Shown in pieces: positions 1-47,296 of a DNA stretch of 47,296 nucleotides (positions within the stretch are counted from its first letter, which is position 1; every line of letters begins with the position of its first letter). The translations under genes were made by a program, and so were the position numbers. The notes beneath the pieces were generated by a model. That model made no database searches and had not been told where the DNA came from. It saw only the letters and a program-made list of their open reading frames with translations. Location: the IMG/VR virus record IMGVR_UViG_3300021411_000010, positions 1 to 47,296 of that record, one strand, 5' to 3'. Source of the stretch: a virus. Taxonomy: Duplodnaviria > Caudoviricetes.

Positions 1-138
1 CGCAGGGGCTAAGGTAGAAATTAAACGTCAATTAGATGCACAATTACAAGGTACAGGTACTGGTCAAGTAGGAACTATTACAACTGCTACTACATCAGGT
101 GGTGTTGATACTTATGTTATGGATGCTGAGTATGGAGC
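1..138. repeat. Terminal overlap (copy 1) showing a circular or circularly permuted complete genome
   Basis: 1-138 equals 47159-47296 except position 12 (A) vs 47170 (C). The capsid reading frame runs through the join. Confidence 0.95.
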
Positions 139-901
139 TAGATTAGTTCGATTTGATCAGGTAGTTCAAGTTTATGATACTACATTAGCTACATTTAGAG
201 GAAAAGGTGTTATTACACAATGGGACGTAGAAAATAAGCAGATTCAGGTAACTCCAGCTATTGCAGGTGCTACAAATACGGATGTATTAGTTGTTGATGG
301 ATTATCTAATCCTACAGCTTTACCTGGCTTGTATGGTGTTCAATATCATCATAGTAATGCTAGTACTGGTACTTGGTTAGGTTATGATAGAGCTAGCACT
401 CCTGAAATTCGGTCTAACCGAGTGAATGGTGGAAGTTCTGCATTAACTTTACCATTACCACGATTAGCTATCAATAAGATTGGTAATAGAGTTGGTATTG
501 ATAATAATTTTGATCCCGTTGCTTGGACACATCCTTGTCAGGCACAGGCATATGAGGAAATTGGACAATTAATTTCTATTATTCATAAAGCACCTAAGGA
601 TGAAGCATTAAATCTTTATTTTGGTGATAATATGCAGTTAGCTGGTGCTCCTATTAAACAACATTTTAATTGGTCTAAGAAACGTGTTGATTTTGTCGTA
701 TCTAGTATTTGGGGTAGAGCAGAAATTCTCCCTATTGGATTCTATACATCTGATGGGCGTAGAATTTTTGAATTAAGAGGAGCTAGTGGTGGTGTAGCCG
801 CAGCAGATATTTTCTATATGGTAGTTGGTTTCCAAACTTTCTTGCTAAATCCTGCTGCTACCGCTTATATTGACGCTCTTGCTATCCCAAGTGGATATTA
901 A
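2..901 (+). CDS. Major capsid protein, 3' part (continues from 46806 across the join; ~417 aa in total)
   Basis: The ORF-track ATG at 119 corresponds to 47277, in frame with the ATG at 46806. Size and position after portal and an acidic scaffold fit an HK97-fold capsid. Confidence 0.85.
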   Translation, partial: AGAKVEIKRQLDAQLQGTGTGQVGTITTATTSGGVDTYVMDAEYGARLVRFDQVVQVYDTTLATFRGKGVITQWDVENKQIQVTPAIAGATNTDVLVVDGLSNPTALPGLYGVQYHHSNASTGTWLGYDRASTPEIRSNRVNGGSSALTLPLPRLAINKIGNRVGIDNNFDPVAWTHPCQAQAYEEIGQLISIIHKAPKDEALNLYFGDNMQLAGAPIKQHFNWSKKRVDFVVSSIWGRAEILPIGFYTSDGRRIFELRGASGGVAAADIFYMVVGFQTFLLNPAATAYIDALAIPSGY

Positions 902-915
902 AGGAGATATGAACA

Positions 916-1254
916 ATGCCTGACCTACAATTCCAGCAGCTTAGTACAGTAAATGATGGTGCTCAGCCTACACCTCCTACAGTTACTGCGGCTGCTACAA
1001 TTAGTCCGAGTACATTTTTAACTATTTTAACAGGTAATACAGCAGTAGCTACTATTGTTCCTCCTGTAGCTGGTGCTCATATGTTAGCTATTGTTCCTGG
1101 AACAACCACTGGTTTTACGACTGGTGGTAATATTGTTGGTGGAACAGCTACAGTAGCTAACAAGTTGTATTTAATGATTTTTAATCCATTACCGGATGCC
1201 GCTTATGCAACTACAGGTGGACATTACTTAATTGTTAACGCAACAACGAGTTAA
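916..1254 (+). CDS. Putative capsid decoration/cement protein
   Basis: 112 aa, rich in Thr/Ala/Gly and beta-type residues, directly after the capsid gene with a strong AGGAG SD. Confidence 0.55.
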   Translation: MPDLQFQQLSTVNDGAQPTPPTVTAAATISPSTFLTILTGNTAVATIVPPVAGAHMLAIVPGTTTGFTTGGNIVGGTATVANKLYLMIFNPLPDAAYATTGGHYLIVNATTS

Positions 1255-1269
1255 ATAATAAAATGGGGG

Positions 1270-1300
1270 GCGCGTATCCATAAAAACGCGCAACTCTTTT
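1270..1300 (+). terminator. Possible intrinsic terminator after the capsid/decoration genes
   Basis: GCGCGT-10 nt-ACGCGC stem followed by CTCTTTT. Confidence 0.4.
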
Positions 1301-1318
1301 AAAAAAGGAAAAGCAAAA

Positions 1319-2047
1319 ATGAAAGTAATGATTGGGTTATCAACAGCAGAAGATTTAAGAAAAGCAGAATTTCTTCCGTATTTTATGAGTTTAAATAGAC
1401 CTGAAAACTCAATGCAATGTACTGTACATGGTCAATCTCCTGCTAAATCTAGAAATCTCATTGCTGAAAGAGCATTAGAAAATAATTGCACTCATATTTT
1501 ATTTTTAGATGATGATATGACTCCTCCAGGTGATACATTGATGAAATTATTGAAACATGATAAAGATGTAGTCTCTGCTCTTTATCTTCTTAGAAGCTAT
1601 CCTCATTATCCAGCCGCTTTTAATAAGAAATATTGGAATGGAAAAAATAAACACGCATTTCTCACATCTGACATGACTGGACTAGTTCCAATTACAAATT
1701 GTGGATTGGGATGTGTTCTTGTCAAAATTGAAGTTTTTAAAAAACTCGAAAAACCTTGGGTTCGTCTTGCTGAACTTGCAAAAGACGAATGGTGTGATGA
1801 CATTGGATTTTTTAATCGTGTTGGAGAAGCTGGATTTGAGATGTTTTGTGATTTAGATACTCCAGTAGGACACATAAACAATATAAGTATTTGGCCTGAA
1901 AAAAAGGAACATGGTTGGTTCACTACATATAAAAATATGAATGGTAATATTACATTTCCTCAATACATTCCAACTAGAGAAGAAATGGAAAAACAAGAAA
2001 TTGATAATGAAAAAGATAAACTAGTTGATTCTCTGACTCCAATTTAG
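1319..2047 (+). CDS. Glycosyltransferase family 2 (GT-A fold)
   Basis: SRNLIAERAL, THILFLDDDM (DxD), CGLGCVLVK, WCDDIGFF and DTPVGH motifs typical of phage GT2 proteins. Confidence 0.85.
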   Translation: MKVMIGLSTAEDLRKAEFLPYFMSLNRPENSMQCTVHGQSPAKSRNLIAERALENNCTHILFLDDDMTPPGDTLMKLLKHDKDVVSALYLLRSYPHYPAAFNKKYWNGKNKHAFLTSDMTGLVPITNCGLGCVLVKIEVFKKLEKPWVRLAELAKDEWCDDIGFFNRVGEAGFEMFCDLDTPVGHINNISIWPEKKEHGWFTTYKNMNGNITFPQYIPTREEMEKQEIDNEKDKLVDSLTPI

Positions 2048-2073
2048 GAGTTCGAGCATAGCTCGGGAGAAAA

Positions 2074-2781
2074 ATGGCTACTGCTGACCCAGGAGTAGGT
2101 TCATGGACGCCCATAAATATGTGGGCAATGCTACGTGCATTAATTAATGCTAACGTTCCTATTCTAACTAATGCTGGTGCTCCTGTAAATGGAACATCTG
2201 GAACATATGTTGGTAAAGCTGCGAAAGGTTCTTTATTAATTGATATTACAAATGGTCCATTATATCAAAATACTGGAACATTAGCTAGTCCTACATGGTC
2301 TTTAGCCGCTATCCCTCCTGGAGGTATTGCATCTGCTCAAATAGCTCCAGGTGTTATTCAGGTTGCTACTGGTCAAATTACAAAAGCTAATATTATTGGA
2401 ACTGCTGCTGGTCAATTAGGTCACGCAAATGGTGTTGTATTAGTTCCAGCCGCTCCAGCAGGTTGTATTAATGAATTAATTAGTTTAGTAGCCGCTATGG
2501 ACTTTGCAACTGCTGCATATACTGGAGCGGCTGGAAACGTAACAGCTAATATTAGTGGAGGTGGAGCGGCTTTAACAGGTATTGTTACAGGTACTATTCT
2601 TATTCAAGCCGCTGCTGATATTATTATTGAATTAGTTCCTTTGGCCGCTACAAAGAATACTTATACAGCCGCTAACGGCTTAGCACTTGTCTGTACTGCT
2701 GCTCCTACAGATCCAGGAACAGCGGCAGGAGTAATTAATTGGGTGTGTTCATATCGTCAAACTGGAGTTCTTGTAACCTAA
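2074..2781 (+). CDS. Putative virion structural protein (head fibre/decoration-like)
   Basis: Ala/Gly/Thr-rich. GAPVNGT...GSLLIDITNGPLYQNTGTLASPTW resembles short trimeric fibre modules. Confidence 0.55.
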   Translation: MATADPGVGSWTPINMWAMLRALINANVPILTNAGAPVNGTSGTYVGKAAKGSLLIDITNGPLYQNTGTLASPTWSLAAIPPGGIASAQIAPGVIQVATGQITKANIIGTAAGQLGHANGVVLVPAAPAGCINELISLVAAMDFATAAYTGAAGNVTANISGGGAALTGIVTGTILIQAAADIIIELVPLAATKNTYTAANGLALVCTAAPTDPGTAAGVINWVCSYRQTGVLVT

Positions 2782-2952
2782 ATGAAACTTGAAATTAATG
2801 ATTTCAATGAATTAGTAAAATTTATTGATCTATTTAGACATTTGGATGACGAAAGACTTAAATCTTTTACTACCGAACTTAATAAAGATAGTGATAAACT
2901 TATTCAAGCAGAACAAAAGGATGGAAAACATGTCAGCACAAGTTCTAGTTGA
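2782..2952 (+). CDS. Small hypothetical protein (56 aa; not in ORF track)
   Basis: ATG abuts the upstream stop (TAAATG); translates as MKLEINDFNELVKFIDLFRHLDDERLKSF... Confidence 0.5.
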   Translation: MKLEINDFNELVKFIDLFRHLDDERLKSFTTELNKDSDKLIQAEQKDGKHVSTSSS

Positions 2953-3160
2953 TCTCAGTGCCGCTACCACTAAGGCTAAGGGAGCTATGGAATCTGCTAC
3001 AGTTCTTATTAATGGTATTGGTGCTCGTGTTCAGGCAGCCGTTGATGCTGCTATTGCTAATGGCGCTACTGCTGAAGAATTAGCTCCAGTTACTCAGGTA
3101 GTTTCTGATTTGAATACTGATGCTGATGCTTTAGCGTCTGCTGTTGCTTCTAATCCATAA
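2930..3160 (+). CDS. Small Ala-rich helical protein (76 aa)
   Basis: Likely start is ATG 2930 (MSAQVLV), in frame with track ORF 2825..3160. Confidence 0.65.
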   Translation: MSAQVLVDLSAATTKAKGAMESATVLINGIGARVQAAVDAAIANGATAEELAPVTQVVSDLNTDADALASAVASNP

Positions 3161-3169
3161 AGATTGAGT

Positions 3170-3256
3170 TGGACTGTTTCTGATGTTCCCTGTCACACTT
3201 TGTATAATTTCACAATTCAGTGAAACAAAGTGGAGCTGAAGAAACAGTCCATTTTT
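3170..3256 (+). other. Long imperfect intergenic RNA hairpin followed by a U tract
   Basis: TGGACTGTTTC/GAAACAGTCCA outer stem, CACTTTG/CAAAGTG and TTTCAC/GTGAAA inner stems, then a T run. Confidence 0.7.
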
Positions 3257-3268
3257 TCCAGGAGTTTT

Positions 3269-3799
3269 ATGGATCTCAGAGAACCAATAGAACGTATAAA
3301 TGAACAATTAATAAATGAATATGGTACTGATATTGCTGATAACAGACCTAAATATAGATTAGTTTGGAGTGATGATCAATATGAGAATAGAATAACTACA
3401 CATGATGATCATGGAAATGAACTTATACGTCCAGAAGTTCGTTATTTGCCTAAATATAAACAATATATAAGACATAGATATATTTTAGAACGATTAACAG
3501 TTGTTTTAGGAGAAACCGATCTTACTGAAAAGGTAGTATACGAAGTTGTTTGGACATTTCAAGATAATCAAGGTAAGTATCTTCCTCCTTGGTTTGAGGC
3601 TTGCAGACATATCATTGAGAATATTCTCATGAATATGGGAGCAAAAAACTACTTTGCTAAATATAAAGATATTATGAGTAAAGAAGAATATATAGCTGGT
3701 ATTGATAGAATGGAAAAAGAGTTATTTGGAAATGAAACTCCTGTTGGAGATGCATTAGCTTATGGTTCTGGTGTAGTAGTTCCTGGAACTATTCATTAA
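3269..3799 (+). CDS. Hypothetical protein in the structural module
   Basis: Start moved to ATG 3269 behind an AGGAG SD; the track start lies inside the hairpin. Confidence 0.75.
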   Translation: MDLREPIERINEQLINEYGTDIADNRPKYRLVWSDDQYENRITTHDDHGNELIRPEVRYLPKYKQYIRHRYILERLTVVLGETDLTEKVVYEVVWTFQDNQGKYLPPWFEACRHIIENILMNMGAKNYFAKYKDIMSKEEYIAGIDRMEKELFGNETPVGDALAYGSGVVVPGTIH

Positions 3800-3808
3800 G
3801 GAGAAAAA

Positions 3809-4552
3809 ATGTCTGATGAAGTTGGAGCACCAATTCTAATAAGAGATGTAAAAACTGGAGCTACATCTCAAATGGAATTTACTAATATTTCTATGAATAA
3901 ACGTAGATTAATTAGAAGTTTCAAGAATCCAATGGACCGTTCTACAATAGTTAACATATTTCCTAAAGATATTTATGAAGAGAAACCAACGATTGAACCA
4001 GGTAAATTCAATATTCCTGCAGGAACATATGATAAACCAGCCGTTCTTACTATAGGTTCTAGTTCATGGTGGAAGGATATTGATGCAGATCAACCTATGT
4101 TAGAAATGCAACGTAGTAGTATTGAGGTAGCAAATGCAGTTGTTACAGATTATTGTAATAGTATGTTAGGTTCAAATATGGGAGACTCAATGCCTGGTCT
4201 CTTTTTTGTTCTTGGAGAACAGAGTTCTAATGATATTGTAGTTAAATTTAAGACAAAATTAGATGAAATGAAAGCGAAACAAATTAATTGGTATAAAGTT
4301 CTAGTTCGTATCGCAGATAGTCTTTGGGCACGTACACAGGGTAATAGTCTTGCTATTTGGGATGAGATGAGATTAGCCGCTCGGGAATTAAATTTTAATG
4401 ATAAACCTTGGCTTAAGGACTATCAAATTTCTGAGCTTGTTCGTTGTAAGGCTTGTGGAGGTATGAGAAATCCATTATTCCCAATTTGTCCATCTTGTAA
4501 GGTTATTGATCAGGATCATCCAGAAGCAAAGAATCTCAAGTTTGCTATTTAG
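3809..4552 (+). CDS. Hypothetical protein with C-terminal zinc ribbon
   Basis: CKACG...CPSC near the C-terminus; AAGGAG SD. Confidence 0.75.
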   Translation: MSDEVGAPILIRDVKTGATSQMEFTNISMNKRRLIRSFKNPMDRSTIVNIFPKDIYEEKPTIEPGKFNIPAGTYDKPAVLTIGSSSWWKDIDADQPMLEMQRSSIEVANAVVTDYCNSMLGSNMGDSMPGLFFVLGEQSSNDIVVKFKTKLDEMKAKQINWYKVLVRIADSLWARTQGNSLAIWDEMRLAARELNFNDKPWLKDYQISELVRCKACGGMRNPLFPICPSCKVIDQDHPEAKNLKFAI

Positions 4553-4560
4553 AGAAATAA

Positions 4561-4917
4561 ATGAGTGTTACAAGTAGTCGTACGATTCAGATAGAATTTT
4601 CTGGTGATGTAGATGCTGAAATAATACAATCCGCTTTAGATAATGCATTTTCTTTTGGTCAAATTGATACTATTAATTTAGCTTCTGGAGCTAATACAAT
4701 AACAGGTCCAGGAGTTAGTTTTCTAGTTACAGGATTAACAATTATTCCACCAGCCGGTAACACCTCATTAATAACTCTTAAAGGAGTTGCTGGAGACACA
4801 GGAGTTAATCTTCACAAAACAGATCCTACATCTATAGCATTGGATAATACACCCTTTGTAAGTTTAGTATTGAACGCTGCGGCTGCAATTGTTGGAGTTA
4901 GATTGATTTGGAGTTAA
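4561..4917 (+). CDS. Putative virion protein
   Basis: 118 aa, beta-rich, between the capsid and neck genes. Confidence 0.55.
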   Translation: MSVTSSRTIQIEFSGDVDAEIIQSALDNAFSFGQIDTINLASGANTITGPGVSFLVTGLTIIPPAGNTSLITLKGVAGDTGVNLHKTDPTSIALDNTPFVSLVLNAAAAIVGVRLIWS

Positions 4918-4918
4918 A

Positions 4919-5617
4919 TTGCCTAAACCAAGTGATATTATAACCACCGTAGCGGCAGCGATGATGAATGATGCCGCTCAGGCAGTATATACTAATGATG
5001 TTTGTTTGCCTCTTCTTAATTTAGCTTTAGATGAGTTACAAGAAATATATGAATTAAATGATATTCCGGCAACAAGTGATACCTCAACGGCTATTACGAT
5101 TCCAGCAGGAATTTCTAGTATAGGATTTGATACAACTCCTGCCCTGCCATCTAATTTTATTGAAATGAAGCAATTATGGGAATCTCAAAATGGATTAAAT
5201 CAATGGACTCCAGTTGCTAAGAAAGAAACACTTCCTCATTATTTGGAAAATAATTCAACTATTTCTATGTTCCTAATATGGGCTTGGGAACATGGAAGGA
5301 TAACTTTAATACCTGCTAATACTCCTATAGATCTCAAATTGGATTATATTGGTAATCTATTTAATACACCAATTCATATTAAAGATGTTAATGTAAATCT
5401 TCCATTCACTAATATTAAAACATATCTTGAGTATAAAACAGGTGCGCTCTGTGCTATGTTTATTGCTGAAAATCCAGAAAGAGCTGGTGCTTTAGATGGC
5501 TTAGCAGGAACAGCTCTTTCACGAGCTCTCGGAATACCTATTAAAGGTATGCAATCTATTACTACTAGACGCAGACCATTTAGAGCCTCATTTAAAAGAC
5601 GAGGAACCTCCTTTTAG
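4919..5617 (+). CDS. Putative head-tail adaptor (podovirus adaptor-like)
   Basis: Helical N-terminus (LLNLALDELQE), beta middle, helical C-terminus; sits just before the nozzle-like gene. Confidence 0.6.
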   Translation: MPKPSDIITTVAAAMMNDAAQAVYTNDVCLPLLNLALDELQEIYELNDIPATSDTSTAITIPAGISSIGFDTTPALPSNFIEMKQLWESQNGLNQWTPVAKKETLPHYLENNSTISMFLIWAWEHGRITLIPANTPIDLKLDYIGNLFNTPIHIKDVNVNLPFTNIKTYLEYKTGALCAMFIAENPERAGALDGLAGTALSRALGIPIKGMQSITTRRRPFRASFKRRGTSF

Positions 5618-5626
5618 GAGGAATAA

Positions 5627-7147
5627 ATGACTATTAGAGATCATCAAGGTATCTCATTTGAACAATTTAATGGTCTATGGGATCGTGGAGATATAGATTC
5701 AACACCTAAAGATCATTTCTCTGAATGTAATAATATAGACTATGCAGCACAAGGTTTCTTTACAAGAGCCGGAATAGGTATTTCTCAAGACGTTTTAGTT
5801 CCACTTACAAATGTACGCCGTATATATAATTATGCTACTCAAACTGCTAACACATTAATAGTTCTTACATATGACTACATTTCTGGATTTGGTAGTATTC
5901 ATCATGTAATTGATTCTAATACAGTATTTGGTCCTCTTTTAACTATTCGAGGTATGACAGATTTTGCTTTTATTCCTTTCGCTGGTAGAGGCTATATTTC
6001 TCCTTTTAGTGACTATATAAATGGTGATTTAACCTTTCAAAAAGGTTTACAGAATGAATTTGTATATGTATATGCTGGAAATGGAACTCCTGCTAGAAAA
6101 GCTGCTGGAGCTGGTTTATCTGGAGCTATGACTATTGCTTTTGGAACACCTGGTCATACAGATGTTGGACAGAAAATATTTGGCATAGTATCACAAACTA
6201 TATCTGGATACAATTCTCCTCCTACATTGCTTCAAACATTTATTACAAATGGTGCAAATTCTGTATCATTTGGTAACATTCCTACTAGTGGAGATCCAAA
6301 CGTAGTTAAACGTCTTCTTGTATCAACTATAACTATTCCAGCTGGAACCTTCAATGGAAATTTAGATGGATATCCATTATTTTTTGTTCCCGACGCCGTT
6401 ATCAACAATAACACAGATACATTCCTTAATAATATATCCTTCTATGATGCTGATCTCCTAGAAGACGCCTCACATCTATTAAATAATTATACGTCGATTC
6501 CGGCTGGTGCCGTTCTAGCATTATATCATAACAGATTATGTGTTGCAACAACATTCACAGACATTTCACTTGTTTTAGTAAGTGAACCAGGAGAACCTGA
6601 AGCTATTAGCCAACTTACAGGATTAATAGTCTTTCCTTTAGATGGTAATCCTATCACAAATGCTCAAGAAATGAGAGATGTTCTGTATCTATTTAAAAGA
6701 TCTAAAACTAAAGCATATGTTGATAATCAAGATGTTCCATCTTCTTGGCTTCCTATTACAATTGATGAAGCGCTTGGAACTTGTCCCCATGGTATTGCTA
6801 CTGTATTGGATTCTGGTGGTTCCACAGTAGATTTTCTTCTTATAGCTACATATCAAGGAATTAGCCAATTTAATGGAAAATTTGTAACTCCTGAATTAAG
6901 TTGGAAAATTGAAAATTATTGGAAACAATTAAATAGAAATCAATTTGGACTAATTCAATTTATAAATGCTCCAATTCAGAAAGAAATTTATGTTATATTA
7001 CCTACTCGTCAGATATTGATGGGAAATTATTCTAATGGTTTAGATTGGAAAAATATAAGATGGGCACCTTGGGCATTTAGAATGGGTATAAATACTATTG
7101 CAATTTATAATATTGATGAAATCATTCTCGGAGCCGATCTCCTATAA
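5627..7147 (+). CDS. Putative tail nozzle/packaged DNA stabilisation protein (P22 gp10/T7 gp12-like position)
   Basis: N-terminal FNGL motif and beta-propeller-like repeats (YHNRLCV, VSEPGEPE, RDVLYLFK, LGTCPHGI). Confidence 0.6.
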   Translation: MTIRDHQGISFEQFNGLWDRGDIDSTPKDHFSECNNIDYAAQGFFTRAGIGISQDVLVPLTNVRRIYNYATQTANTLIVLTYDYISGFGSIHHVIDSNTVFGPLLTIRGMTDFAFIPFAGRGYISPFSDYINGDLTFQKGLQNEFVYVYAGNGTPARKAAGAGLSGAMTIAFGTPGHTDVGQKIFGIVSQTISGYNSPPTLLQTFITNGANSVSFGNIPTSGDPNVVKRLLVSTITIPAGTFNGNLDGYPLFFVPDAVINNNTDTFLNNISFYDADLLEDASHLLNNYTSIPAGAVLALYHNRLCVATTFTDISLVLVSEPGEPEAISQLTGLIVFPLDGNPITNAQEMRDVLYLFKRSKTKAYVDNQDVPSSWLPITIDEALGTCPHGIATVLDSGGSTVDFLLIATYQGISQFNGKFVTPELSWKIENYWKQLNRNQFGLIQFINAPIQKEIYVILPTRQILMGNYSNGLDWKNIRWAPWAFRMGINTIAIYNIDEIILGADLL

Positions 7148-7150
7148 GCC

Positions 7151-8302
7151 ATGCCTATTGTAGGCTCATACGTTTGTAAATTTACTCTTTTTGGTGTTCC
7201 AACTGGTTCTCCATTGCATATTGGAGGGCCAGGATATGAATGGGGTCCATCTTTAGGTACTGGTTTAAGTGGAGTAGCAACTTATACAGCAATAGGAAAT
7301 TGTTTCTCCCTTAATGGTGGAGCTTTAATTTCATTCAATGGATTACCTTCTGGATTCACTCCTCTTTCAGTAAATTTTAGAAAGACTGGAGGAGGTGTTG
7401 TAGGATCATTATCTAATGGTAATCTCTTAGATAGTGCTCATGCTACTACTGCATTTGGAATATTCGGTCCTCAACAAACTAATTTAACGGCAGTAGGAAC
7501 TGCTAATATTTTCCCACCTTCTGTAATTGGAGCAAGTGCAATTGATTTAATTGCTTTATTTACAATTTCAATTAATTTAAGTTTTGGTTCCGGCGCCGAT
7601 GTTAGTCTATTAGCAATAGTCCTTGAAAACTTAGAAATTTTTGGAAATTATGATATTGTAGCTGTTCCATTTACTCCTCCTGTAACTCCTATTCCTACTT
7701 TACAAGGTACAACAAAACGAGTAGGTGAGAGAGTTAAAATTATTTCAACTTTGAAAGATTTAGATGATGTAGAAGAAATAAAACTCGATTTCGGTGTGCA
7801 TACTATAATCTTAAAAACTCATGAACCTATTATAAATGTAGATGGTGTTGATATTTATGGATATAATTTTATAGAATTTTTCTCTGAAGATGAAATTTGG
7901 TTTGATATTCCTTTATATTTTGACACATATGCTGGACCTTACATAGTTACAATTATATACTTTCCAGGAACACAATTTTCAGGTTCTGTTCTTTTAGGCA
8001 CTCTTAACATCTTATATGAAGATGCTTCTGGAATCTATAGATTTATTAAAAATAAAACAAATGATACATTATATTTCAGAGATGGATTTACTACAGATGT
8101 AAGTTTCCTGATGCTTCCTGAAGATGAAATAATTGAAGATGATTTCTTTAGTTTTCTCTCATATCCTTATAGAATTTTAGCTAAAACTGAAGATGATGAA
8201 GAAATTAATGATTTTACACAATTTGCTTCTCTTAGAGAAGTTGTAGTAACTGAAGATGTGAATATTCCTACTTCATTTATCAAAACAGCATTTCTACCAT
8301 AG
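7151..8302 (+). CDS. Putative tail-associated protein
   Basis: 383 aa, beta-rich, within the tail module. Confidence 0.55.
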   Translation: MPIVGSYVCKFTLFGVPTGSPLHIGGPGYEWGPSLGTGLSGVATYTAIGNCFSLNGGALISFNGLPSGFTPLSVNFRKTGGGVVGSLSNGNLLDSAHATTAFGIFGPQQTNLTAVGTANIFPPSVIGASAIDLIALFTISINLSFGSGADVSLLAIVLENLEIFGNYDIVAVPFTPPVTPIPTLQGTTKRVGERVKIISTLKDLDDVEEIKLDFGVHTIILKTHEPIINVDGVDIYGYNFIEFFSEDEIWFDIPLYFDTYAGPYIVTIIYFPGTQFSGSVLLGTLNILYEDASGIYRFIKNKTNDTLYFRDGFTTDVSFLMLPEDEIIEDDFFSFLSYPYRILAKTEDDEEINDFTQFASLREVVVTEDVNIPTSFIKTAFLP

Positions 8303-8307
8303 AGAAG

Positions 8308-9582: not shown

Positions 9583-9595
9583 GGGAGATTTTTAA

Positions 9596-9970: not shown

Positions 9971-10247
9971 ATCAGAAGAAGTAATAAATCATTATGGAGC
10001 TGTACGTTTACGTGTTACTGGTATTGCGAACTTGAAATTAAAATTATTTAGTCTTAATGAAATTAAACAATTCAATCTTCTTCCTTTAACAATACAATCT
10101 AGAACTAATATTGAGCCTAATAGATTATCAAATTTTACGCAACAAAGAGCTAAATTAGAGATTAGAACTACTGAATTAGATGAAGTCTTTAATATTTCTA
10201 AAGTTATTATTTTTGTAAGACCAGTCGCAAAATCCTATCCAGAATGA
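9963..10247 (+). CDS. Small beta-rich tail protein
   Basis: TTG start overlapping the upstream stop; alternating hydrophobic beta strands. Confidence 0.5.
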   Translation: MPKSEEVINHYGAVRLRVTGIANLKLKLFSLNEIKQFNLLPLTIQSRTNIEPNRLSNFTQQRAKLEIRTTELDEVFNISKVIIFVRPVAKSYPE

Positions 10248-38490: not shown

Positions 38491-39728
38491 ATAATACCGA
38501 AATTCGTTCACAATTAGCGTTAGCGACCGATATTATTAACAGAGTAAGAGATTCATTTGAATCAGTTATAACTACAGAAGCCGAATTCGATACTGCTCTA
38601 GCCAGTTCTGCAGTAACAATTAATGTTAGCCCTGAATTCACATACTCTAAGCCATTAGTAATCAATAGATTAGTTAACATTAATAACGCTTCGTTGTTAT
38701 CATCATCAATAGCACGCGCAAATTTTACAGATAAACAACCAGTGTTTTCTGGTGGAATGATTGTACAAGCACAAGTCACAGGATATGGACTTGAAATACA
38801 TGGCACGGCGGATTCAGTTTTGAATATTAACGGCGCCGTTGGACCCCGATTCACTCAGTGTAAGATACTAGGTGATACAAATAAGCGAGGTATTAGAGCC
38901 AATGGTGGTAATATGGCTTTCATTGGCTGTTATATAGCTGGATTTAAAAGAATAGGGCAAGATACTCAAGCTATATTCACGTCTGATATGACTGCCCCTG
39001 GCTTACTAGTTGATAATTGTTATATCGAAGCCGCTGGCGAGAATTTCATGGCTGGTGGAGAAGATCCTAGTCAAGAAAGTCACATACCAAGTTTAATCAC
39101 ATTTAGAAATTGTGATTTCTCAAAAGATCCAAATTGGTATGCATTAGGGATACAATTAAAGAATACATTTGAATTAAAAAATGCTAAAGGAGTTCAAGTT
39201 CTAAATTGTAGGATGAAATACTCAGGTGGAATTTCAGAAGGTCAAGCTTCTGCATTCTTTGTATTCACACCTCGTAATCAGAGTACGACTGCTCCATACT
39301 CTACGATTGAGGATGTATTAGTTAAAGATTGTATTTGTGATATTGGTGGAGCTTGTATTGTAATGCAAGGTTCTGATAATAATGTTGGACATCCAAGTAG
39401 AACAATGAAAAATGTTATGTTTGATAATATTCATTTTACTAATATTGATCCATTGGGAATTACAAAAGGAACAGGACGAGCATTTACATTTTTACGTGCT
39501 CCTGAGAATATTACATTACAGAATATTACTGTAGGAGGTAAATTGAAAGCTGCAGGATATTTAATTGCACCAGCTCCAGTTAAGTTGACATTAAAGAATA
39601 TTAAGGTTCCTACTAGCACATATGATTGGAAGATTGATGCAGGTCTGTCTGGAATACCAGCATGGAAAACATTAATGCCGGATTCAACTATAGAAGTCAC
39701 ATTGGCAGACACAGGCTCAACGATTTGA
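38487..39728 (+). CDS. Right-handed parallel beta-helix (pectate-lyase-like) protein, possible depolymerase
   Basis: Repeats such as LLVDNCYIEAAGENFMAGG, ITFRNCDF, KNTFELKNAKGV, FTPRNQ and DVLVKDC. Confidence 0.75.
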   Translation: MNNTEIRSQLALATDIINRVRDSFESVITTEAEFDTALASSAVTINVSPEFTYSKPLVINRLVNINNASLLSSSIARANFTDKQPVFSGGMIVQAQVTGYGLEIHGTADSVLNINGAVGPRFTQCKILGDTNKRGIRANGGNMAFIGCYIAGFKRIGQDTQAIFTSDMTAPGLLVDNCYIEAAGENFMAGGEDPSQESHIPSLITFRNCDFSKDPNWYALGIQLKNTFELKNAKGVQVLNCRMKYSGGISEGQASAFFVFTPRNQSTTAPYSTIEDVLVKDCICDIGGACIVMQGSDNNVGHPSRTMKNVMFDNIHFTNIDPLGITKGTGRAFTFLRAPENITLQNITVGGKLKAAGYLIAPAPVKLTLKNIKVPTSTYDWKIDAGLSGIPAWKTLMPDSTIEVTLADTGSTI

Positions 39729-39735
39729 GGAAACA

Positions 39736-40074
39736 ATGAAAAGATTTTTTCTCAGTCTCTTATTTCTTCTAGTAGCTTCAGTAAGTTATGCTCAAGGTGC
39801 AACAGCTATATGGAATCAAGGAGAGACTGTAGCTGTAGCACAGACATTCACTTACACTTTGAAAATTGATGCTTTAGCTCCAGTACCATTAGTTACAACT
39901 TGTTCATTAGTAAATAATTTAACGAGTTGTCAGGCTACGTTTACATTACTCAATCCGTCAGCGTCACACACCTACGTGCTAACGGCATCGAATAATTTTG
40001 GATCTTTTTCTACTACATTAGGTCCAGGTTCTATTCCAATCACAACATTATTTAAAATTGTTATCATCGGTTAA
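39736..40074 (+). CDS. Secreted small Ig/Fn3-like protein
   Basis: Sec signal MKRFFLSLLFLLVASVSYA-Q; two Cys; HTYVLTASNNFG. Confidence 0.7.
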   Translation: MKRFFLSLLFLLVASVSYAQGATAIWNQGETVAVAQTFTYTLKIDALAPVPLVTTCSLVNNLTSCQATFTLLNPSASHTYVLTASNNFGSFSTTLGPGSIPITTLFKIVIIG

Positions 40075-41771
40075 TGCCTATTTCTATATCAAATGGTATT
40101 GTATCTTCAGATCCAGGAAATGGTTTATATGAGGACTTTCTTAGAGATAAAAATATTAAACCTCATACAGTTCAGGAAGAATTATTAACACTTCCAGATG
40201 AAGTCTTTGAAGCCCTTTATGGTGGTGCTGCCTATGGTGGAAAATCTTGGATTCTCACATTACTTCCTTTATTTCGTGGGTTCTATAAGTTTAGAGGATA
40301 TAAAGGTATCATTTTACGTAACAAATTCCCAGATCTTGAACGAGAAATCATACGATTAAGTAAGGAATATTATCCTAAAACTGGAGCTAAATATAATGAA
40401 CAGAAACATAGTTGGGAGTGGCCAGAAACAAATGCATATCAAGATTTTGGTCATGTACAGCATGCTGGTGATATTACTATGTACGATTCTAGTCAGTATA
40501 ACTATTGCGCCTTCGATGAACTTACCCATTTTTCAGCGTATCCATATCATTATATGGTTGGTAGCCGCGTTCGTCCTAGCAGTTCGTTCAATATTGCTAT
40601 TGTTAGGAACGGCTCCAATCCAGGTGGAATTGGACAAACATTCGTCTACAATAGATTTGTTAAACCATGTGAAGATGGACATCAAATAATAAGAGATGTT
40701 AGTACAGGATTATTAAGAATATTTATTCCAGCAAAAGCAGAGGATAATCCTTATGGAATGGAATATGATCCAACGTATGTTAAAAAACTTGAAATTCTTA
40801 AAGTCGTTTCTGAAGCGGAATATAAAGCAAAAAGATATGGTGACTGGCATGCTTATAAAGGATCAGTATTTACAACCTTCAGACCAATGCATTTTAGCGG
40901 TGAACCAGATAATGCATTGCATGTTATTAAACGATTCCAAATACCTGAATGGTGGCCGAGAATATTGTCTATTGACTGGGGTAAAAGAGCGATGTGTTAT
41001 GCAATGTGGGGAGCTATCGCACCAAATCATAGAGTGTACATTTATAGAGAACGGTCTTGGTATGGTAGAGACATCCCATATTGGGCTTCGGAAATAAGAG
41101 AAGTTAATGCTGAAAGTAATGAAATACCAATACATACTGTTCTATGTGGTAGTGCATGGCAAAATAGAGGCGGTGAACTCATCGCTAACGAATTTCAGAA
41201 GTATTCTGATTTGGTTCCAACATCATCAGAAAATACTCCTGGTAGCCGCGTAGCCGGATTGCAGCTTGTTCATGATATGTTAAGATGGGAAAAGAAAACA
41301 AATTTAAGAGCTAAAGGTGAATTCTTTGATATTGCACTTTCTCAAGAAATTTATAGAAATTTTGGACCAATAGCTTTAGAGAATTATAAGAAACAATTCT
41401 ATGACGAACCTGAGGAAGATAATCTTCCCATATTACAAATCTTCGAAGATTGTAAAATTTTAATAGAAACTATTCCAATGTGCATTTATGATGATAAGAA
41501 GATTGAAGATATCGCAGAATTTGAAGGAGATGATCCAATTGATGATCTTCGATATTTCTGCAAAGCTGCAAATAAGTTTCTTCTCGGTGAAATTGCAGGC
41601 TTAGATATAGCTGCTAAGAAACAACAAGTAATTGATTCATTAGCAACTAATGGTGATATGACAGCCTTTTATAGAAGAATGGAAGCTATTGAGAAACAAG
41701 ATATTGCTACAATGCAAGATTGTATTCCTATCAGTCGAAGAAGTAGATTTGCACGAAGGAGAACTCATTGA
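40074..41771 (+). CDS. terL: Terminase large subunit
   Basis: YGGAAYGGKS Walker A, AFDELTHF Walker B, SNPGG coupling motif, SIDWG and DDPIDDLRY nuclease motifs. Confidence 0.95.
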   Translation: MPISISNGIVSSDPGNGLYEDFLRDKNIKPHTVQEELLTLPDEVFEALYGGAAYGGKSWILTLLPLFRGFYKFRGYKGIILRNKFPDLEREIIRLSKEYYPKTGAKYNEQKHSWEWPETNAYQDFGHVQHAGDITMYDSSQYNYCAFDELTHFSAYPYHYMVGSRVRPSSSFNIAIVRNGSNPGGIGQTFVYNRFVKPCEDGHQIIRDVSTGLLRIFIPAKAEDNPYGMEYDPTYVKKLEILKVVSEAEYKAKRYGDWHAYKGSVFTTFRPMHFSGEPDNALHVIKRFQIPEWWPRILSIDWGKRAMCYAMWGAIAPNHRVYIYRERSWYGRDIPYWASEIREVNAESNEIPIHTVLCGSAWQNRGGELIANEFQKYSDLVPTSSENTPGSRVAGLQLVHDMLRWEKKTNLRAKGEFFDIALSQEIYRNFGPIALENYKKQFYDEPEEDNLPILQIFEDCKILIETIPMCIYDDKKIEDIAEFEGDDPIDDLRYFCKAANKFLLGEIAGLDIAAKKQQVIDSLATNGDMTAFYRRMEAIEKQDIATMQDCIPISRRSRFARRRTH

Positions 41772-42133
41772 TTCGATTCATTATGTTTCTTCTTGGTAAA
41801 CCTTATGAAACCTGTAAAAGTTGTGAAACTCTAAGAGCTCAATTAGCTTATGTAAATGATGAGAAGAGACAACTTACAGAAACACTTCTAAATATTGTTC
41901 AACCTAAGGTTGTAGAGTCTGCCCCAATAGAAATCAATCCAGTTATTTCAACATCTGGATTATTTAGTCGTAAGAGGGCAGCATTAGAAGCTAGGGATAG
42001 AGAAGAATCTAGAATACTTAGAGAATCTAAAAATTTAGGTAAACCTGATATTCTCATTTCTAAAAAAGATGAAAGTATTAAGAACTTAGAGAATGAATTA
42101 GGAATTGAAGAAGAGAAGGAGAAAGCAAACTAA
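41768..42133 (+). CDS. Hypothetical coiled-coil protein with CxxC
   Basis: CKSCETLRAQL; TTG start overlapping the terL stop. Confidence 0.65.
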   Translation: MIRFIMFLLGKPYETCKSCETLRAQLAYVNDEKRQLTETLLNIVQPKVVESAPIEINPVISTSGLFSRKRAALEARDREESRILRESKNLGKPDILISKKDESIKNLENELGIEEEKEKAN

Positions 42134-42363
42134 TGGCAAATGCGGCACCGGCTACTGTAACTGTTACTGGTTCTACAGGACCAGGACAAGCTGTTACTAC
42201 ACAGAAATTTACTGATGTTGTAGATATTGAATATGATTTTAATCGTAATGTGGTTAAACTTACACGATCCGGTGCCGGTGGCATCGTATATTATGATTAT
42301 TCAGCATTAACTACTATTACACAGGTTATTACTGCTGGTGTGACTACTATTGTGATGTCATAA
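42133..42363 (+). CDS. Small beta-rich protein (paralog A)
   Basis: Similar length, start, core and end to the next ORF. Confidence 0.7.
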   Translation: MANAAPATVTVTGSTGPGQAVTTQKFTDVVDIEYDFNRNVVKLTRSGAGGIVYYDYSALTTITQVITAGVTTIVMS

Positions 42364-42364
42364 G

Positions 42365-42601
42365 ATGGCAAATGTTCCTCTTACCAATGCTACTGTTAGA
42401 GTAACAGCTAAAGATATTAATAATAATAGTGTTGCCAAATTCTTTTCACAAGTAAAAAATATCAACTTCGATTACGCAGATGGTATGGTTAATGTCGTAG
42501 ATGTTACAGGTTCATTTTGGTTTCCACTAACTCCTATGACAACTCTAACCTATGTTATTGTTGCTAATCCTGGTGGGCAACATACTGTTGTAATGAGTTA
42601 A
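42365..42601 (+). CDS. Small beta-rich protein (paralog B)
   Basis: MAN...ATVxVT...KFxxVxxIxxD...TT.T.VI...T.VMS shared with paralog A. Confidence 0.7.
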   Translation: MANVPLTNATVRVTAKDINNNSVAKFFSQVKNINFDYADGMVNVVDVTGSFWFPLTPMTTLTYVIVANPGGQHTVVMS

Positions 42602-42604
42602 GTT

Positions 42605-42919
42605 ATGAGTAGTTGGAATAAATCTTCTTTAGCTTTTTCCGATGGGATGAGTCGTAATAATAGTATTCTAAAACCAAGAATATCTAAACAGAATTTTATG
42701 GAACATAAAATGTTTGGTTCTAAAAGAAAAGGAATATTAATTGGTAAGAATTTTAAAAAGGTTGGCAAAGGCATTATGAAAAGTTCCACATCAGGTGGAA
42801 AAATGCCAAAGTCATCTGGAATTAGTCCAGATATTGGTGAATTTGATAAGATGATGAGTTCAATTACTGGAGTAAAGAGTAATAAAAAATCTATGTTTAA
42901 TAGAAAGCAATTTGGTTAA
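42605..42919 (+). CDS. Small Lys/Ser/Gly-rich basic protein (start uncertain)
   Basis: Low-complexity basic ORF just before the portal gene. Confidence 0.5.
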   Translation: MSSWNKSSLAFSDGMSRNNSILKPRISKQNFMEHKMFGSKRKGILIGKNFKKVGKGIMKSSTSGGKMPKSSGISPDIGEFDKMMSSITGVKSNKKSMFNRKQFG

Positions 42920-42959
42920 ATTTCATAGTGATTAAGTTTCACAGTGACTGAAATACACA

Positions 42960-45512
42960 ATGCTTGAACCACACAAAGACAGTGATTTTGACGAAATTTG
43001 TGATCTATTAAAGACGGTTGCTGACCACTTTGATAAAGAAGATCATATGACGCGAGAGCGTCAGATTCGTCATTGGAGGAGACAAAAATTATATTGGAAC
43101 AACTTCTCCCAAATTTATTGGAGTGAATCAACAGGAGATTACAAAATATATAATAGAGAAATTAATTCTTCAGATACGGATCAAGATTATTATGATAAAC
43201 CTATTAACGTATATAAAGCGTTTTTAGAGACAATCATAGCCGCTCTGAGTATACAGATTCCTGCTATTAACTGTGTCCCAGATGATGCTGAGAATCCTCT
43301 TGACATAAGCACAGCTAAAGCAGGGGATAAAATTTCTGAATTAATTTATAAGCATAATGACGTAATGTTTTTGTGGCTTCATGCCCTTTACATTTATTGT
43401 ACCGAAGGATTAATTGGTTGTTATAATTATTCGAAAGAGGATAAGTCTTATGGCACATATGAGAAACCTAAATATAAAGATGAAGAAGTAGATTCTTATG
43501 TATGTCCACAATGTGGAGCTAGAATTCCAGATGAAATGTTTGATTCTCATGAAGAAGATGGAAAAGATCAATCAACAGGATTATGTTCTGAATGTTCTAT
43601 GTTTTTACCGGATCAAAATAAATGCACAATTCATGGATCTGAAGATCAAATAGTACCAGAGGGAACCTGTAACTTCTTTGAAGAAGGCACTCCAGGAAGT
43701 AATGGAGATACACCAAGAGGAGAAGTAACAGTACAACAATCAAATTATCAACCAAATGCACAAGGTAACATTTGCATAGAATGTGGTGCTTCAGTAAATT
43801 CTGATTTACAAAAAACTAAACTTAAAATTCCTCGTTTAGTTGGAACAACTAAAGAACCGAAGAGTCGTGTTTGCTTAGAAATTTATGGTGGATTATATAT
43901 TAAAGTAGCTAATTACGCTAAAAAACAAGCAGACACTCCTTATCTACATTTTAGTTATGAAACTCACTATGCCAACGCGATGGAATGTTATCCATATCTA
44001 AGAGAGAAAATTCCTCACGGTGGCTCTGGTTTTAGTGCAGGGGGAGTTAATGATCCTTATGAACAATATGGACGACTTAATACACAATATAGAGGTGAGT
44101 TCCCAGATGAAAATGTAACAGTTAAAAATTGTTGGCAAAGAGTTGCATCATTTAATATTTTAGAAGATGCTGATTATAAGAAACTAAAGAAAAAGTTTCC
44201 TAATGGTGTTAAATTTGTAACGGTAAATGATATTCCAGTTTATTACGAAGATGAATCTTTAGATGACCATTGGACTCTATCTCATAATCCAATGTCTGAT
44301 TATCTAAATCATGATCCTCTTGGAGAGTTAGTAACAAATGTTCAAGATATTATAAATGATTTAATTAGTTTAACTCTTCAAACTATTGAGCATGGAATAG
44401 AACAGACATGGGCTGATCCTGCTGTTGTTAACTTTAATGCACAACGTCAAATAGAAGCCATGCCTGGTACGATAACTCCTACTAAACCTGTTGCAGGCTC
44501 CCGTAATATTGCAGAAGCATTTTATACATCGAAAACGGCTGCATTAGCTCCTGAAGTAGTTAATTTCTATAGAATTATTCAAGAATTAGGTCAATTCGTT
44601 TCAGGTGCTCTTCCATCAATTTTTGGTGGAAATCAAGGAGCTGGTAGCTCACGAACGGCATCGGAATATGCAATGTCCAAAGGAATGGCATTGCAAAGGT
44701 TACAGACACCTTGGAAGATGTTAATTATTTGGTGGAAAACTATATTTGGTAAAGCTATTCCAATGTATATGAAAAATATGGTTGAAGATGAAAGAATTGT
44801 TGAGAAAAATGATATGGGTAAATTTGTAAATGTATTTATTAGAAGAGCTGAAATGGATGGACGTATTGGTTCTATAGAGTTAGAACCTGATGAGAAACTT
44901 CCAATAAGTGATGAGCAACAAGCAGATATTATTTTACAATTAATGAATTTGAATAATCAAGAAGTAACAGCCGCTCTGATGGACCCTGAAAATCTACCGT
45001 ATGTTAGTAAAATTATTAAAATTCCGGGATTCAAACTCCCTGGTGAAGAAGATAGACAAAAAATACATGAAGACATTGATGAACTTGTTAATAGCACTCC
45101 AATTCCTGTTGATCCTAAATCTGTTGAATTATATCAACAAGCAAAAGCGACTGGAAGTGCAGACGTACAAGAACCGCAAGAGCAGCCATCTATAGAAATT
45201 GATGCAGATGTAGTTAATCCTCAAATTGCGGCTACTATCTGTAAATCTTGGTTAATAGGCTCTGCAGGACGATTAGCTAAGAAAGAGAATCCTGATGGAT
45301 ATAAAAACGTTTTATTGTATATGAAAGGATATTTAAATATAATTCAACAACAGATACAAACTCAACAACTACATGATGATCAATTATCATTAGCTGGAGT
45401 AAAGGATAAACAAAAAACTTCAGATGTTCCTGCTGGAGCACCGCCTCCACCTAAGCCGAAACAATCTGGAAAAGTGAGTGGAGGCGGTAATGCACAGACT
45501 CCTATTGAATGA
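42960..45512 (+). CDS. Portal protein with a Cys-rich insertion
   Basis: 850 aa between terL and scaffold; PIN...ETIIAAL, QDIIND, SRTASEY...ALQRL helical portal pattern. Confidence 0.85.
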   Translation: MLEPHKDSDFDEICDLLKTVADHFDKEDHMTRERQIRHWRRQKLYWNNFSQIYWSESTGDYKIYNREINSSDTDQDYYDKPINVYKAFLETIIAALSIQIPAINCVPDDAENPLDISTAKAGDKISELIYKHNDVMFLWLHALYIYCTEGLIGCYNYSKEDKSYGTYEKPKYKDEEVDSYVCPQCGARIPDEMFDSHEEDGKDQSTGLCSECSMFLPDQNKCTIHGSEDQIVPEGTCNFFEEGTPGSNGDTPRGEVTVQQSNYQPNAQGNICIECGASVNSDLQKTKLKIPRLVGTTKEPKSRVCLEIYGGLYIKVANYAKKQADTPYLHFSYETHYANAMECYPYLREKIPHGGSGFSAGGVNDPYEQYGRLNTQYRGEFPDENVTVKNCWQRVASFNILEDADYKKLKKKFPNGVKFVTVNDIPVYYEDESLDDHWTLSHNPMSDYLNHDPLGELVTNVQDIINDLISLTLQTIEHGIEQTWADPAVVNFNAQRQIEAMPGTITPTKPVAGSRNIAEAFYTSKTAALAPEVVNFYRIIQELGQFVSGALPSIFGGNQGAGSSRTASEYAMSKGMALQRLQTPWKMLIIWWKTIFGKAIPMYMKNMVEDERIVEKNDMGKFVNVFIRRAEMDGRIGSIELEPDEKLPISDEQQADIILQLMNLNNQEVTAALMDPENLPYVSKIIKIPGFKLPGEEDRQKIHEDIDELVNSTPIPVDPKSVELYQQAKATGSADVQEPQEQPSIEIDADVVNPQIAATICKSWLIGSAGRLAKKENPDGYKNVLLYMKGYLNIIQQQIQTQQLHDDQLSLAGVKDKQKTSDVPAGAPPPPKPKQSGKVSGGGNAQTPIE

Positions 45513-46794
45513 ACCAATATTGTTGTATGCTCCACCAGAAGTTTTATCTCCTGAAGGATCTACAAAAATTCCGTCTCCGAAGACGGCTGATGATATTAAT
45601 GATTTGTTTAAAACTATTGATGATGAAAAAGTTGTTCCAGATAAGATTAAAGAGAAAGTTATATCAGAGGAAGATAAAGAAGATAAGGAAGTAAGAGAGA
45701 AGGAAGAAGATGATGAATTAGAACTTATTGAGCCTGAAGAAGATGATGAAGAAATTGAAAAATTAAATATTGAGGAACGAAATGAAGAAATAGAAACTCC
45801 TCCGCGTAAAAGAGAAATTCTAAAGAAATATCCTGACGTATTTAAAGATTTTCCTTTTTTAGAAAAAATGATGTATCGTGATAAACAAATTACTGAAATG
45901 TTTGGTTCCTTTGATGATGCTAAGGAAGTAGCTGAGAAATCTGAAACATTTAATAGTTTTGAATCCCAATTACTTAGTGGAAATACAGAAGAAATATTAA
46001 GATCAGTTAAGGAGACAGATGAGAAAGCTTTTAATATTATTATTGATGATTATCTTCCTACATTAGCTAAGGTTGATAAGGAAGCATATTTCCATGTAAT
46101 TGGAAATTTAAATAAAAGACTCATTATGGAAATGGTAGCAGAAGCTAACGATTTAGAAAATACTGATCCTGATAGAGCTGCTGATTTAAAACAAGCCGCT
46201 CTGATGGTTAACCAATATGTGTTTGGAAACACAAAATTTACTCCACCTACTACTCGTGTTCCGAAAAAAAGTCCTGATGAACAAAGTGAATCTGAGAAAG
46301 AAAGACTCTCTTGGGTTCAGGAAAGATTTGAATCTTCTCGTGATGATTTACAGACACGAGTTGATAATACATTAAAAGCTACTATATCTGACTATATTGA
46401 TCCAAAGAATGTTATGTCAGGTTATGTAAAAAAGAATGCTGTAGCAGACGCTATGAAGATTCTTACATCTGCTATAGCTTCTGATCCAAGTGTGAGTAAA
46501 AATCTTAATAGATTATGGAAATCTGCATTTGAATCTAAATTCTCACGAGATTCTTTGGGAAGGATACAATCATTTTATCTTTCCAAAGCAAAAGGGAATC
46601 TCAAAAATGCTATTCTCAAAGCTAGAGCAGAAGCTCTAAAAGATTTAGCTCCCAAAATAAGGGAAAAAGAAGTTGACGACGAAGAAACTCCTCGCAGACA
46701 GAGGAATATAACACCTGGCAGACCTTCCCAGCCACAAAATAAAAATGGGATGAAAAAGGGAGAATCTGTAACTGACTTTTTCATGCGTGACTAA
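45478..46794 (+). CDS. Putative capsid scaffolding protein
   Basis: Highly acidic N-terminus, helical body, directly upstream of the capsid gene. Confidence 0.7.
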   Translation: MEAVMHRLLLNEPILLYAPPEVLSPEGSTKIPSPKTADDINDLFKTIDDEKVVPDKIKEKVISEEDKEDKEVREKEEDDELELIEPEEDDEEIEKLNIEERNEEIETPPRKREILKKYPDVFKDFPFLEKMMYRDKQITEMFGSFDDAKEVAEKSETFNSFESQLLSGNTEEILRSVKETDEKAFNIIIDDYLPTLAKVDKEAYFHVIGNLNKRLIMEMVAEANDLENTDPDRAADLKQAALMVNQYVFGNTKFTPPTTRVPKKSPDEQSESEKERLSWVQERFESSRDDLQTRVDNTLKATISDYIDPKNVMSGYVKKNAVADAMKILTSAIASDPSVSKNLNRLWKSAFESKFSRDSLGRIQSFYLSKAKGNLKNAILKARAEALKDLAPKIREKEVDDEETPRRQRNITPGRPSQPQNKNGMKKGESVTDFFMRD

Positions 46795-46805
46795 GGAGAT
46801 AGCTT

Positions 46806-47296
46806 ATGCCAGGACCTGTAGTTGAATCAGTAGTAGCCGGTACAGAACTAGAAAAAGTTCTACCGAAAGTTACTACTGTATTCGAATCTGATGACACATT
46901 TTTAGGTAATATTAAAAAACGTGATGTAGAAGTAGTTAGCTATCGCGAAATGCGAGCACCTATGGAATTAAGACCAGGTGGTAGGTTTCAATATTTTAAT
47001 CCAGATGGTGGAGATATGGGACGAGGCGGCGGTCCTACTTGGGACAAAGCCGTTGTTAGACCTGTATTTCTATCAGAGAATATTGAATATACTAAATTAA
47101 CTCAATGGTCTACTGACGACCGTCGTAAATCAGTAATTAATGCCGTTAGGAGATTAACCGCAGGGGCTACGGTAGAAATTAAACGTCAATTAGATGCACA
47201 ATTACAAGGTACAGGTACTGGTCAAGTAGGAACTATTACAACTGCTACTACATCAGGTGGTGTTGATACTTATGTTATGGATGCTGAGTATGGAGC
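46806..47296 (+). CDS. Major capsid protein, 5' part (continues across the join to 901)
   Basis: AAGGAG SD, then MPGPVVESVVAGTELEKVLPKV..., open to the window end. Confidence 0.85.
   Translation, partial: MPGPVVESVVAGTELEKVLPKVTTVFESDDTFLGNIKKRDVEVVSYREMRAPMELRPGGRFQYFNPDGGDMGRGGGPTWDKAVVRPVFLSENIEYTKLTQWSTDDRRKSVINAVRRLTAGATVEIKRQLDAQLQGTGTGQVGTITTATTSGGVDTYVMDAEYG
47159..47296. repeat. Terminal overlap (copy 2)
   Basis: Matches 1-138 with one mismatch. Confidence 0.95.

Follow-up and report, generated by a model that had tools for sequence, protein, structure and literature searches.

Microbial primases recognise a template triplet and start the primer opposite its middle pyrimidine, the third base being cryptic or uncopied; the Aquifex enzyme uses the triplets CCC, GCC and CGC and makes some products of 9-13 nucleotides (nt) (PMC2532735). 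DnaG primers are about 10 nt long (PMC6163395), DnaG of M. tuberculosis recognises 5'-GC(G/C)-3' (as cited in PMC12839067), and T7 primase favours an A/T-rich 3' flank on the template (PMC12839067). Primases made of a family A DNA polymerase (PolA) and a protein that binds single-stranded DNA (SSB) also exist, CCPol-MP being an example (PMC7581432, PMC10061031). Short words that are dispersed and over-represented in a genome are likewise a known kind of element. HIP1 and DNA uptake sequences are words of this sort in the coding DNA of chromosomes, and HIP1 is a palindrome. Here we describe the word GCCG(C/T)T (GCCGYT) in the tailed-phage record IMGVR_UViG_3300021411_000010, of which the whole stretch of 47,296 nt was analysed (the window), and in the phage clade to which it belongs. 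The hexamer is the core of a polar element of about 13 nt with a G/C-favouring 3' tail that ends sharply at +11 (numbering from the first G of GCCG as 0), which we tentatively interpret as a primer-start site. A literature search that did not include the literal motif found no clade-wide phage word with a one-sided G/C tail of primer length.

The element shares with DnaG-type sites (Aquifex, M. tuberculosis, and 5'-(G/T)2GTC-3' of T7) a polar layout, a triplet whose middle base is a pyrimidine and whose third base varies, an influence that follows the direction of synthesis for roughly the length of a primer, and a template 3' flank that leans to A/T. It differs from them in its four invariant bases and graded tail, in having no replichore polarity and in the absence of a detectable primase gene; moreover, it is enriched 4-5-fold genome-wide, whereas the T7 sites reach 1.1-1.35-fold. 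Like CCPol-MP of SCCmec, the phage encodes an A-family polymerase, a small SSB-like protein and a helicase together in one operon, and no gene for an AEP or DnaG accompanies them, but here a full-length PolA that carries UDG and exonuclease domains stands in a podovirus, and in place of a preferred start that maps to one origin there are 90 dispersed sites. In contrast to HIP1 and DNA uptake sequences, the word is confined to a phage clade, and it is polar where HIP1 is palindromic.

An exact count found 90 copies of GCCGYT in the window, 46 on the plus and 44 on the minus strand (GCCGCT 31, GCCGTT 15, AGCGGC 15, AACGGC 29), about one per 525 bp, where base composition predicts 14.7 and a Markov-2 model 11.6. 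The preceding base is A in 55 copies, T in 27, C in 5 and G in 3. The initial annotation had claimed some 85-90 copies against 12-15 expected by base composition, usually preceded by A or T; the recount bears this out, and the example coordinates it gave were all correct, including 35846 inside the 17-bp spacer of a promoter running from TTGACA to TATGAT. Seven copies lie outside the called open reading frames (ORFs); two of these copies, at 47049 and 47142, belong to the capsid gene interrupted by the contig join, so that five are intergenic. No hairpin context was found around the sites.

Protein sequence does not explain these sites, since synonymous shuffles fall far below the observed counts. 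The 64 called ORFs hold 53 sense and 30 antisense copies, while within-gene synonymous shuffles (n=500) predict 12.0 and 6.1, with maxima of 23 and 15; the excess (83 observed vs 18), which the initial annotation had proposed might vanish under codon-preserving shuffling, persisted. All four forms of the hexamer rank among the top codon-corrected words of the window ORFs. Because a dicodon-preserving shuffle would fix the in-frame hexamer, the choice of Ala codon by the next base was used instead. When GCT follows, 48% of Ala codons are GCC, and when GTT follows 62% are, versus 5-8% before A, C or T; in GC-N-G-Y-T contexts, the base at N is C 90 times, T 55, G 45 and A 39.

For the clade we pooled 1,082 non-redundant ORFs (700 kb), omitting the loci L026-L029, L077, L078 and L081, which carry no signal. 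AGCCGYT occurs 705 times in this pool against 135 expected and is enriched 3.5-6.4-fold in each of the six frames; therefore different motif positions occupy the wobble base and all respond. Non-coding clade DNA (47 kb) holds 80 copies against 19.6 expected. Together with the synonymous shuffles and the Ala codon context, the six-frame and non-coding enrichment rules out an amino-acid or codon-usage artefact, and the six-frame enrichment and the wobble-C data rule out a single-base mutational hotspot or CpG protection. Any single change within GCCG lowered the ratio to 0.36-1.06x, except in AGCGGYT, a word within which the reverse complement of the motif itself lies. AACCGCT, the mirror word, stands at only 0.45x, indicating that the element is polar and not a palindrome. 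A HIP1-like palindrome, HIP1 being among the options of the initial annotation, is thus not what is seen, and a search of five complete genomes, which did not cover host methylases, found no cognate DNA methylase of PF01555 or PF00145. AGCCGTT is as enriched as AGCCGCT, and the flanks are lineage-specific: position -1 is mostly A, while one group has G there and the window T, +4 is Y or, in one group, G, and +5 is T or, in one group, A. Flank variants are common to sister taxa in two pairs (L034/L061 and L048/L050) of a poorly resolved tree.

Downstream of the hexamer, G/C is favoured. At wobble positions, G or C stands at +8 in 632 of 1,114 sites (270 expected) and at +11 in 447 of 1,090 (263 expected), with little G/C excess on the upstream side and no tail at near-miss controls. 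Both orientations, sense and antisense, show the tail, and so does the window taken by itself (+8: 52 vs 12). A logistic model over 4,093 permissive contexts gave G/C odds ratios (OR) of 1.64, 1.03, 3.95, 1.45, 1.35 and 2.26 for +6 to +11 and 1.02 at +12; upstream, positions -2 and -3 gave 1.3 and positions -4 to -7 gave 0.71-0.83. G and C count alike in the tail. The probability that a context holds a site rises through 13, 31, 46, 57 and 64% as the number of G/C in +6 to +11 grows, and is flat, at 34-43%, across the number in the six upstream bases. Even the self-symmetric AGCCGCT has a one-sided tail (185/67 at +8, 78/69 at the mirror position -4), and an unbiased scan for one-sided tails placed a GCCG word first or second in 6/8 clade loci tested.

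The word is at least 2.2-fold over the Markov-2 expectation in 23/23 polymerase-linked loci, some of them near-duplicates, and at least 2-fold in 46/52 terminase-linked loci, the six exceptions including L044 and L045, which favour AGCCGG, and L077, L078 and L081, which show no signal. In 15/15 whole records AGCCGYT exceeds its reversed control (23-72 vs 1-10). After codon correction, the enrichment in 14 records (G006 was omitted for its frameshifts) was 4.5-fold in early sense, 3.9-fold in early antisense, 4.25-fold in late sense and 4.2-fold in late antisense orientation. The strand symmetry noted in the initial annotation thus holds for the pooled records, and fails in G006 (8:38) and G011 (9:26), where sites are skewed toward the early-gene strand. 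G006, which corresponds to L163-L165, is full of frameshifts that are probably assembly errors; stop-codon recoding was rejected there, as the breaks are frameshifts. The conservation of site positions among relatives, proposed as a check in the initial annotation, did not exceed that of control wobble bases (OR 2.85 and 2.09 vs 2.06-2.15): positions turn over while density stays.

The window is a complete virus record with overlapping ends (~127 bp). Its sequence is present in soil metagenome runs, one of which may be its source and none of which is listed as an RNA run; their contigs agree with the sequence and offer no usable polymorphism. The uncultured soil clade is large, with 119 other polymerases at 65% identity or more. 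Podovirus-type structural genes are joined by a replication arm with a SNF2 helicase, a PD-(D/E)XK exonuclease, a Sak4-like protein, a DUF669 protein, a UDG-fused family A polymerase and a DUF3987 helicase (Table 1). The DUF669 protein is likely the SSB, a role associated with this family. Motif B of the PolA carries an apparent His, as counted from the sequence, at what we take to be the equivalent of E. coli position 762. The PHROG family of the DUF3987 helicase is labelled 'DNA primase', yet the 414-aa protein is a helicase only; DUF3987 proteins are MCM-like and often accompanied by an AEP or DnaG primase (PMC4889955). No primase family was detected among the 64 window ORFs, and searches with PF09250 and PF08275 were negative in 5/5 complete genomes and with PF01807 in the one genome searched, in agreement with the initial annotation that none is encoded; the clade may have a very divergent one. 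PolA, an SSB-type protein and a helicase therefore occur together without a canonical primase, the gene set of a PolA-SSB primase.

Table 1. Sites and genes of the window that bear on the element.
Feature	Position	Strand	Remarks
90 GCCGYT copies	1197..47153	46 +, 44 -	core of the polar 13-nt element (A>T/G)GCCG(Y)(T>A)-V-N-S-V-s-S
Densest cluster	2304..2727	both orientations	10 sites, Ala-rich structural gene
Intergenic site	35845..35857	+	within spacer of sigma70-type promoter (TTGACA-17-TATGAT), read from sequence
DUF3987 helicase	18292..19536	-	stand-alone, MCM-like, SF6, 414 aa, without attached primase domain
76-aa alpha/beta protein	19684..19914	-	directly upstream of the helicase, clade-only
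UDG-PolA	21192..23669	-	UDG-fused family A polymerase
ParB-type helix-turn-helix (HTH) protein	24116..24370	-	stand-alone, 84 aa
DUF669 protein	24943..25323	-	candidate partner in a PolA-SSB primase
Sak4-like annealing protein	25795..26685	-	
Double zinc-finger protein	26899..27192	-	
PD-(D/E)XK exonuclease	27737..28651	-	
SNF2 helicase/translocase	31347..32936	-	

Several neighbouring proteins were considered as accessory factors or readers. The 76-aa protein was rejected as a required factor, as G013 and G006 lack its gene yet keep the motif, and it gave no fold match. The double zinc-finger protein is present in 15/15 records and showed no fold match to a primase zinc-binding domain. A 1792-aa ejection-type protein (12190-17568, plus strand) contains a GHKL ATPase module (residues 725-818) and a HEFTH zincin-like motif; the GHKL module was discarded as a motif reader, the insert being common only to L005 among the loci tested. 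A 231-aa protein gave no lead in Atlas.

We put the probability that the 13-nt element is a primer-start site at roughly 0.45, the primer being made by the DnaG of the host or by a PolA-SSB primase of the phage, with host DnaG somewhat more likely. A fixed start, few invariant bases and a one-way G/C extension that ends after 12-13 nt are what a primer would be expected to look like, and priming fits best among the functions that the initial annotation offered for a dispersed recognition site because the tail is one-sided; its proposal of a site at the DNA level, beyond protein sequence, stands. The would-be template triplet, 5'-GC(T>C,A)-3', has a middle pyrimidine and an unfixed third base, in line with the grammar of DnaG, and this third base varies by lineage; triplets at which primers begin with G are known from Aquifex and M. 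tuberculosis. The influence covers roughly the length of a primer in what would be the direction of synthesis (+6 and +8 to +11 raised, +7 and +12 near 1.0), and the A/T lean at -4 to -7 parallels the template 3' flank of T7 primase.

Under the priming interpretation, the primase would recognise the triplet 5'-GC(T/C/A)-3' on the complementary single strand, its template, and make a primer of about 12 nt, pppGCCGYU-N-N-S-N-N-S, or possibly start one base earlier, at the A. The G/C-rich 3' half of the primer would keep it annealed to the AT-rich DNA for extension by the phage polymerase. Forks would start by recombination (exonuclease, Sak4, SSB) or strand displacement instead of from one origin, so both strands would need sites everywhere, and the codon pairs that can carry them (Ala-Ala, Ala-Val, x-Ala-Ala, x-Thr-Ala) would tend to hold sites because chance gives about fivefold too few at 35% GC. 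That the clade primes for itself through its full-length UDG-PolA and SSB, starting at a 13-nt sequence written about every 500 bp, appears to us rather improbable; UDG-PolAs and SNF2-linked, strand-displacing PolAs are treated in PMC13697223, PMC10201439 and PMC9069017, and the accessible parts of these papers describe no such motif.

A number of observations weigh against priming. Among distant phages with the same helicase (77 loci, of which 16 under 13 kb were dropped) the word never exceeded 1.5x in any of the 61 tested, the outgroup phages show no comparable GCCG signal with a G/C tail, and no separate primase gene was found in four annotated outgroups and L088. Around the GC-skew switch the sites show no leading/lagging polarity, with 3.9-4.5x in all four classes of arm and orientation, and in the 14 records they do not favour the lagging-strand template that a fixed origin would set; this lack is compatible only with forks in both directions. 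Sites in the window are spaced no more evenly than permissive positions (coefficient of variation 1.06 vs null 0.99-1.43). The tail is uneven, +8 standing far above +7, unlike pure hybrid stability, and the strict C2-G3 exceeds the triplet rule. The proven priming pentamers of T7 gave, by the same method, 162 vs 120 (1.35x) and 189 vs 172 (1.1x).

A Chi-like role is unlikely. In it, the single strand 5'-ARCGGCW-3' would be recognised by a host helicase-nuclease of the AddAB or RecBCD type or by the exonuclease of the phage, and the enzyme would then turn from degradation to recombination; many sites, in either orientation, would benefit the phage. Chi is polar and read on single-stranded DNA, and its activity depends on a one-sided flank (PMC5041463), but E. 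coli Chi prefers A or G on its 3' side, not G/C. The B. subtilis Chi is 5'-AGCGG (PMC4824097), with which one variant begins when read on the reverse strand, yet the pentamer is not sufficient here, as ARCGG without the following C stands at 0.36-0.74x and AGCGG shows no enrichment by itself. In phages LLS and P1, Chi sites have accumulated to about 1 per 1.9 kb, unexplained by codon use, and phage Chi sites are expected to come and go (PMC12315714); the element described here resembles them as a short polar word in codons whose density is kept as positions change. However, the Chi-rich lambdoids are mostly without a recombination module (PMC12315714), whereas this clade has its own exonuclease, Sak4 and SSB, and 20/23 Chi sites of LLS lie in one orientation, whereas the clade pool is symmetric. 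The genome-wide strand skew of G006 and G011 is compatible with Chi. Two metagenome-assembled genomes that hold clade contigs, and are probably not hosts, showed no excess of the word (151 vs 156, 814 vs 1010).

Recognition as double-stranded DNA by a phage protein, most plausibly the stand-alone ParB-type HTH protein or the winged helix of the helicase, would serve to organise the DNA or to load the helicase; we hold it to be improbable. The HTH protein is encoded in 14/15 records, missing only from the incomplete G016. It is the remnant of an outgroup fusion of ParB-N, HTH and N6-N4-methylase that became a separate protein in the clade; the fusion is full in distant phages, reduced to HTH and methylase in L088 and L089 and to the HTH alone in the clade (loci compared include L088:4675-5742 and L100:4618-5997). 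In the lineage with G at -1 the HTH has diverged strongly (41% identity vs 79% for PolA). AGCCGCT is also the 7-bp core of the KorB operator OB, TTTAGCGGCTAAA (PMC11790492), but the T/A flanks of that operator, TTT and AAA, are missing from the phage element, with 0 full operators in the window and 1 in 700 kb, and AGCCGTT is equally enriched. At T-variant sites of the window, G at -3 (28/36) and C at -4 (17/36) roughly mirror the tail; nevertheless, the tail is one-sided even on the self-symmetric AGCCGCT, where a symmetric dimer would not produce it. No relative of the HTH was found in the PDB, and pairs of sites have no preferred or fixed spacing.

There is only a slight chance that the element gives the phage no benefit and builds up passively, a process linked to a methylase, to repair or to a footprint cutting G/C-to-A/T mutation over a 13-bp patch that is anchored at the word. 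Lowered mutation over the patch has been proposed for HIP1 and Vsr patches, the genome is CpG-poor (observed/expected 0.60), positions turn over freely, G and C count alike in the tail, and equilibrium counts cannot separate selection from mutation or repair bias. Against this, the six-frame enrichment excludes a bias at a single position, wobble C lies about tenfold above the non-CpG baseline, so that simple protection from CpG decay is insufficient, and none of the five genomes searched encodes one of the DNA methylases. A similarly small chance falls to readers of another kind, for instance the machinery for packaging or ejection.

Some further features were noted. The major capsid gene spans the contig join (46807-47296 and 1-901), and a 113-aa early gene product (24473-24814, minus strand) resembles part of the major capsid protein and clusters with capsid, with 35% identity over residues 44-111 to the capsid region of L024. 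An Acb2/Tad1-type anti-defence protein is encoded at 25361-25594 (minus strand). About 3.5 tandem 16-nt units, possibly an origin or promoter feature, precede a tRNA-Leu(TAA) at 27210-27360 (minus strand). Between the divergent arms, the non-coding segment 34600-35050, in which GC-rich runs flank an AT-only stretch, has short CAACGTGC repeats and the GC-skew switch and is a candidate origin or genome end. L012 encodes at 19933-20928 (minus strand) a deoxyhypusine/homospermidine synthase, a gene with many close relatives on 43-49 kb contigs and absent from the window; as a host lead, its relatives gave only Elusimicrobia (57%) and Acidobacteriota (52%). The distant DUF3987 phages L104, L133, L114, L124, L089 and L150 have moderately enriched words of their own (CCTTA, AAGCT, CAACTG, CAGGCA, CGCGCG and CCGGCG, respectively), and words containing AG/CT reach 1.1-1.3x across outgroups, a figure that is uncontrolled and not used as evidence.

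The element may bear on how strands are started in tailed phages that have a polymerase and a helicase of their own but no primase. Read from the genome, the prediction is that a template with 5'-ARCGGCT-3' would yield a primer pppGCCGYU of about 12 nt, in a manner that depends on the G/C tail. Any phage clade can be put through the same flank analysis. Were the element Chi-like, it would show what Chi looks like in a host group that is unstudied. With host DnaG as the reader, the word would predict the specificity of the host primase and might help to find the host of this large uncultured soil clade. If the phage PolA is the reader, it would be a new self-priming polymerase, and a tailed phage would then possess a primase outside the DnaG and AEP families whose preferred primer can be read from synonymous codons.

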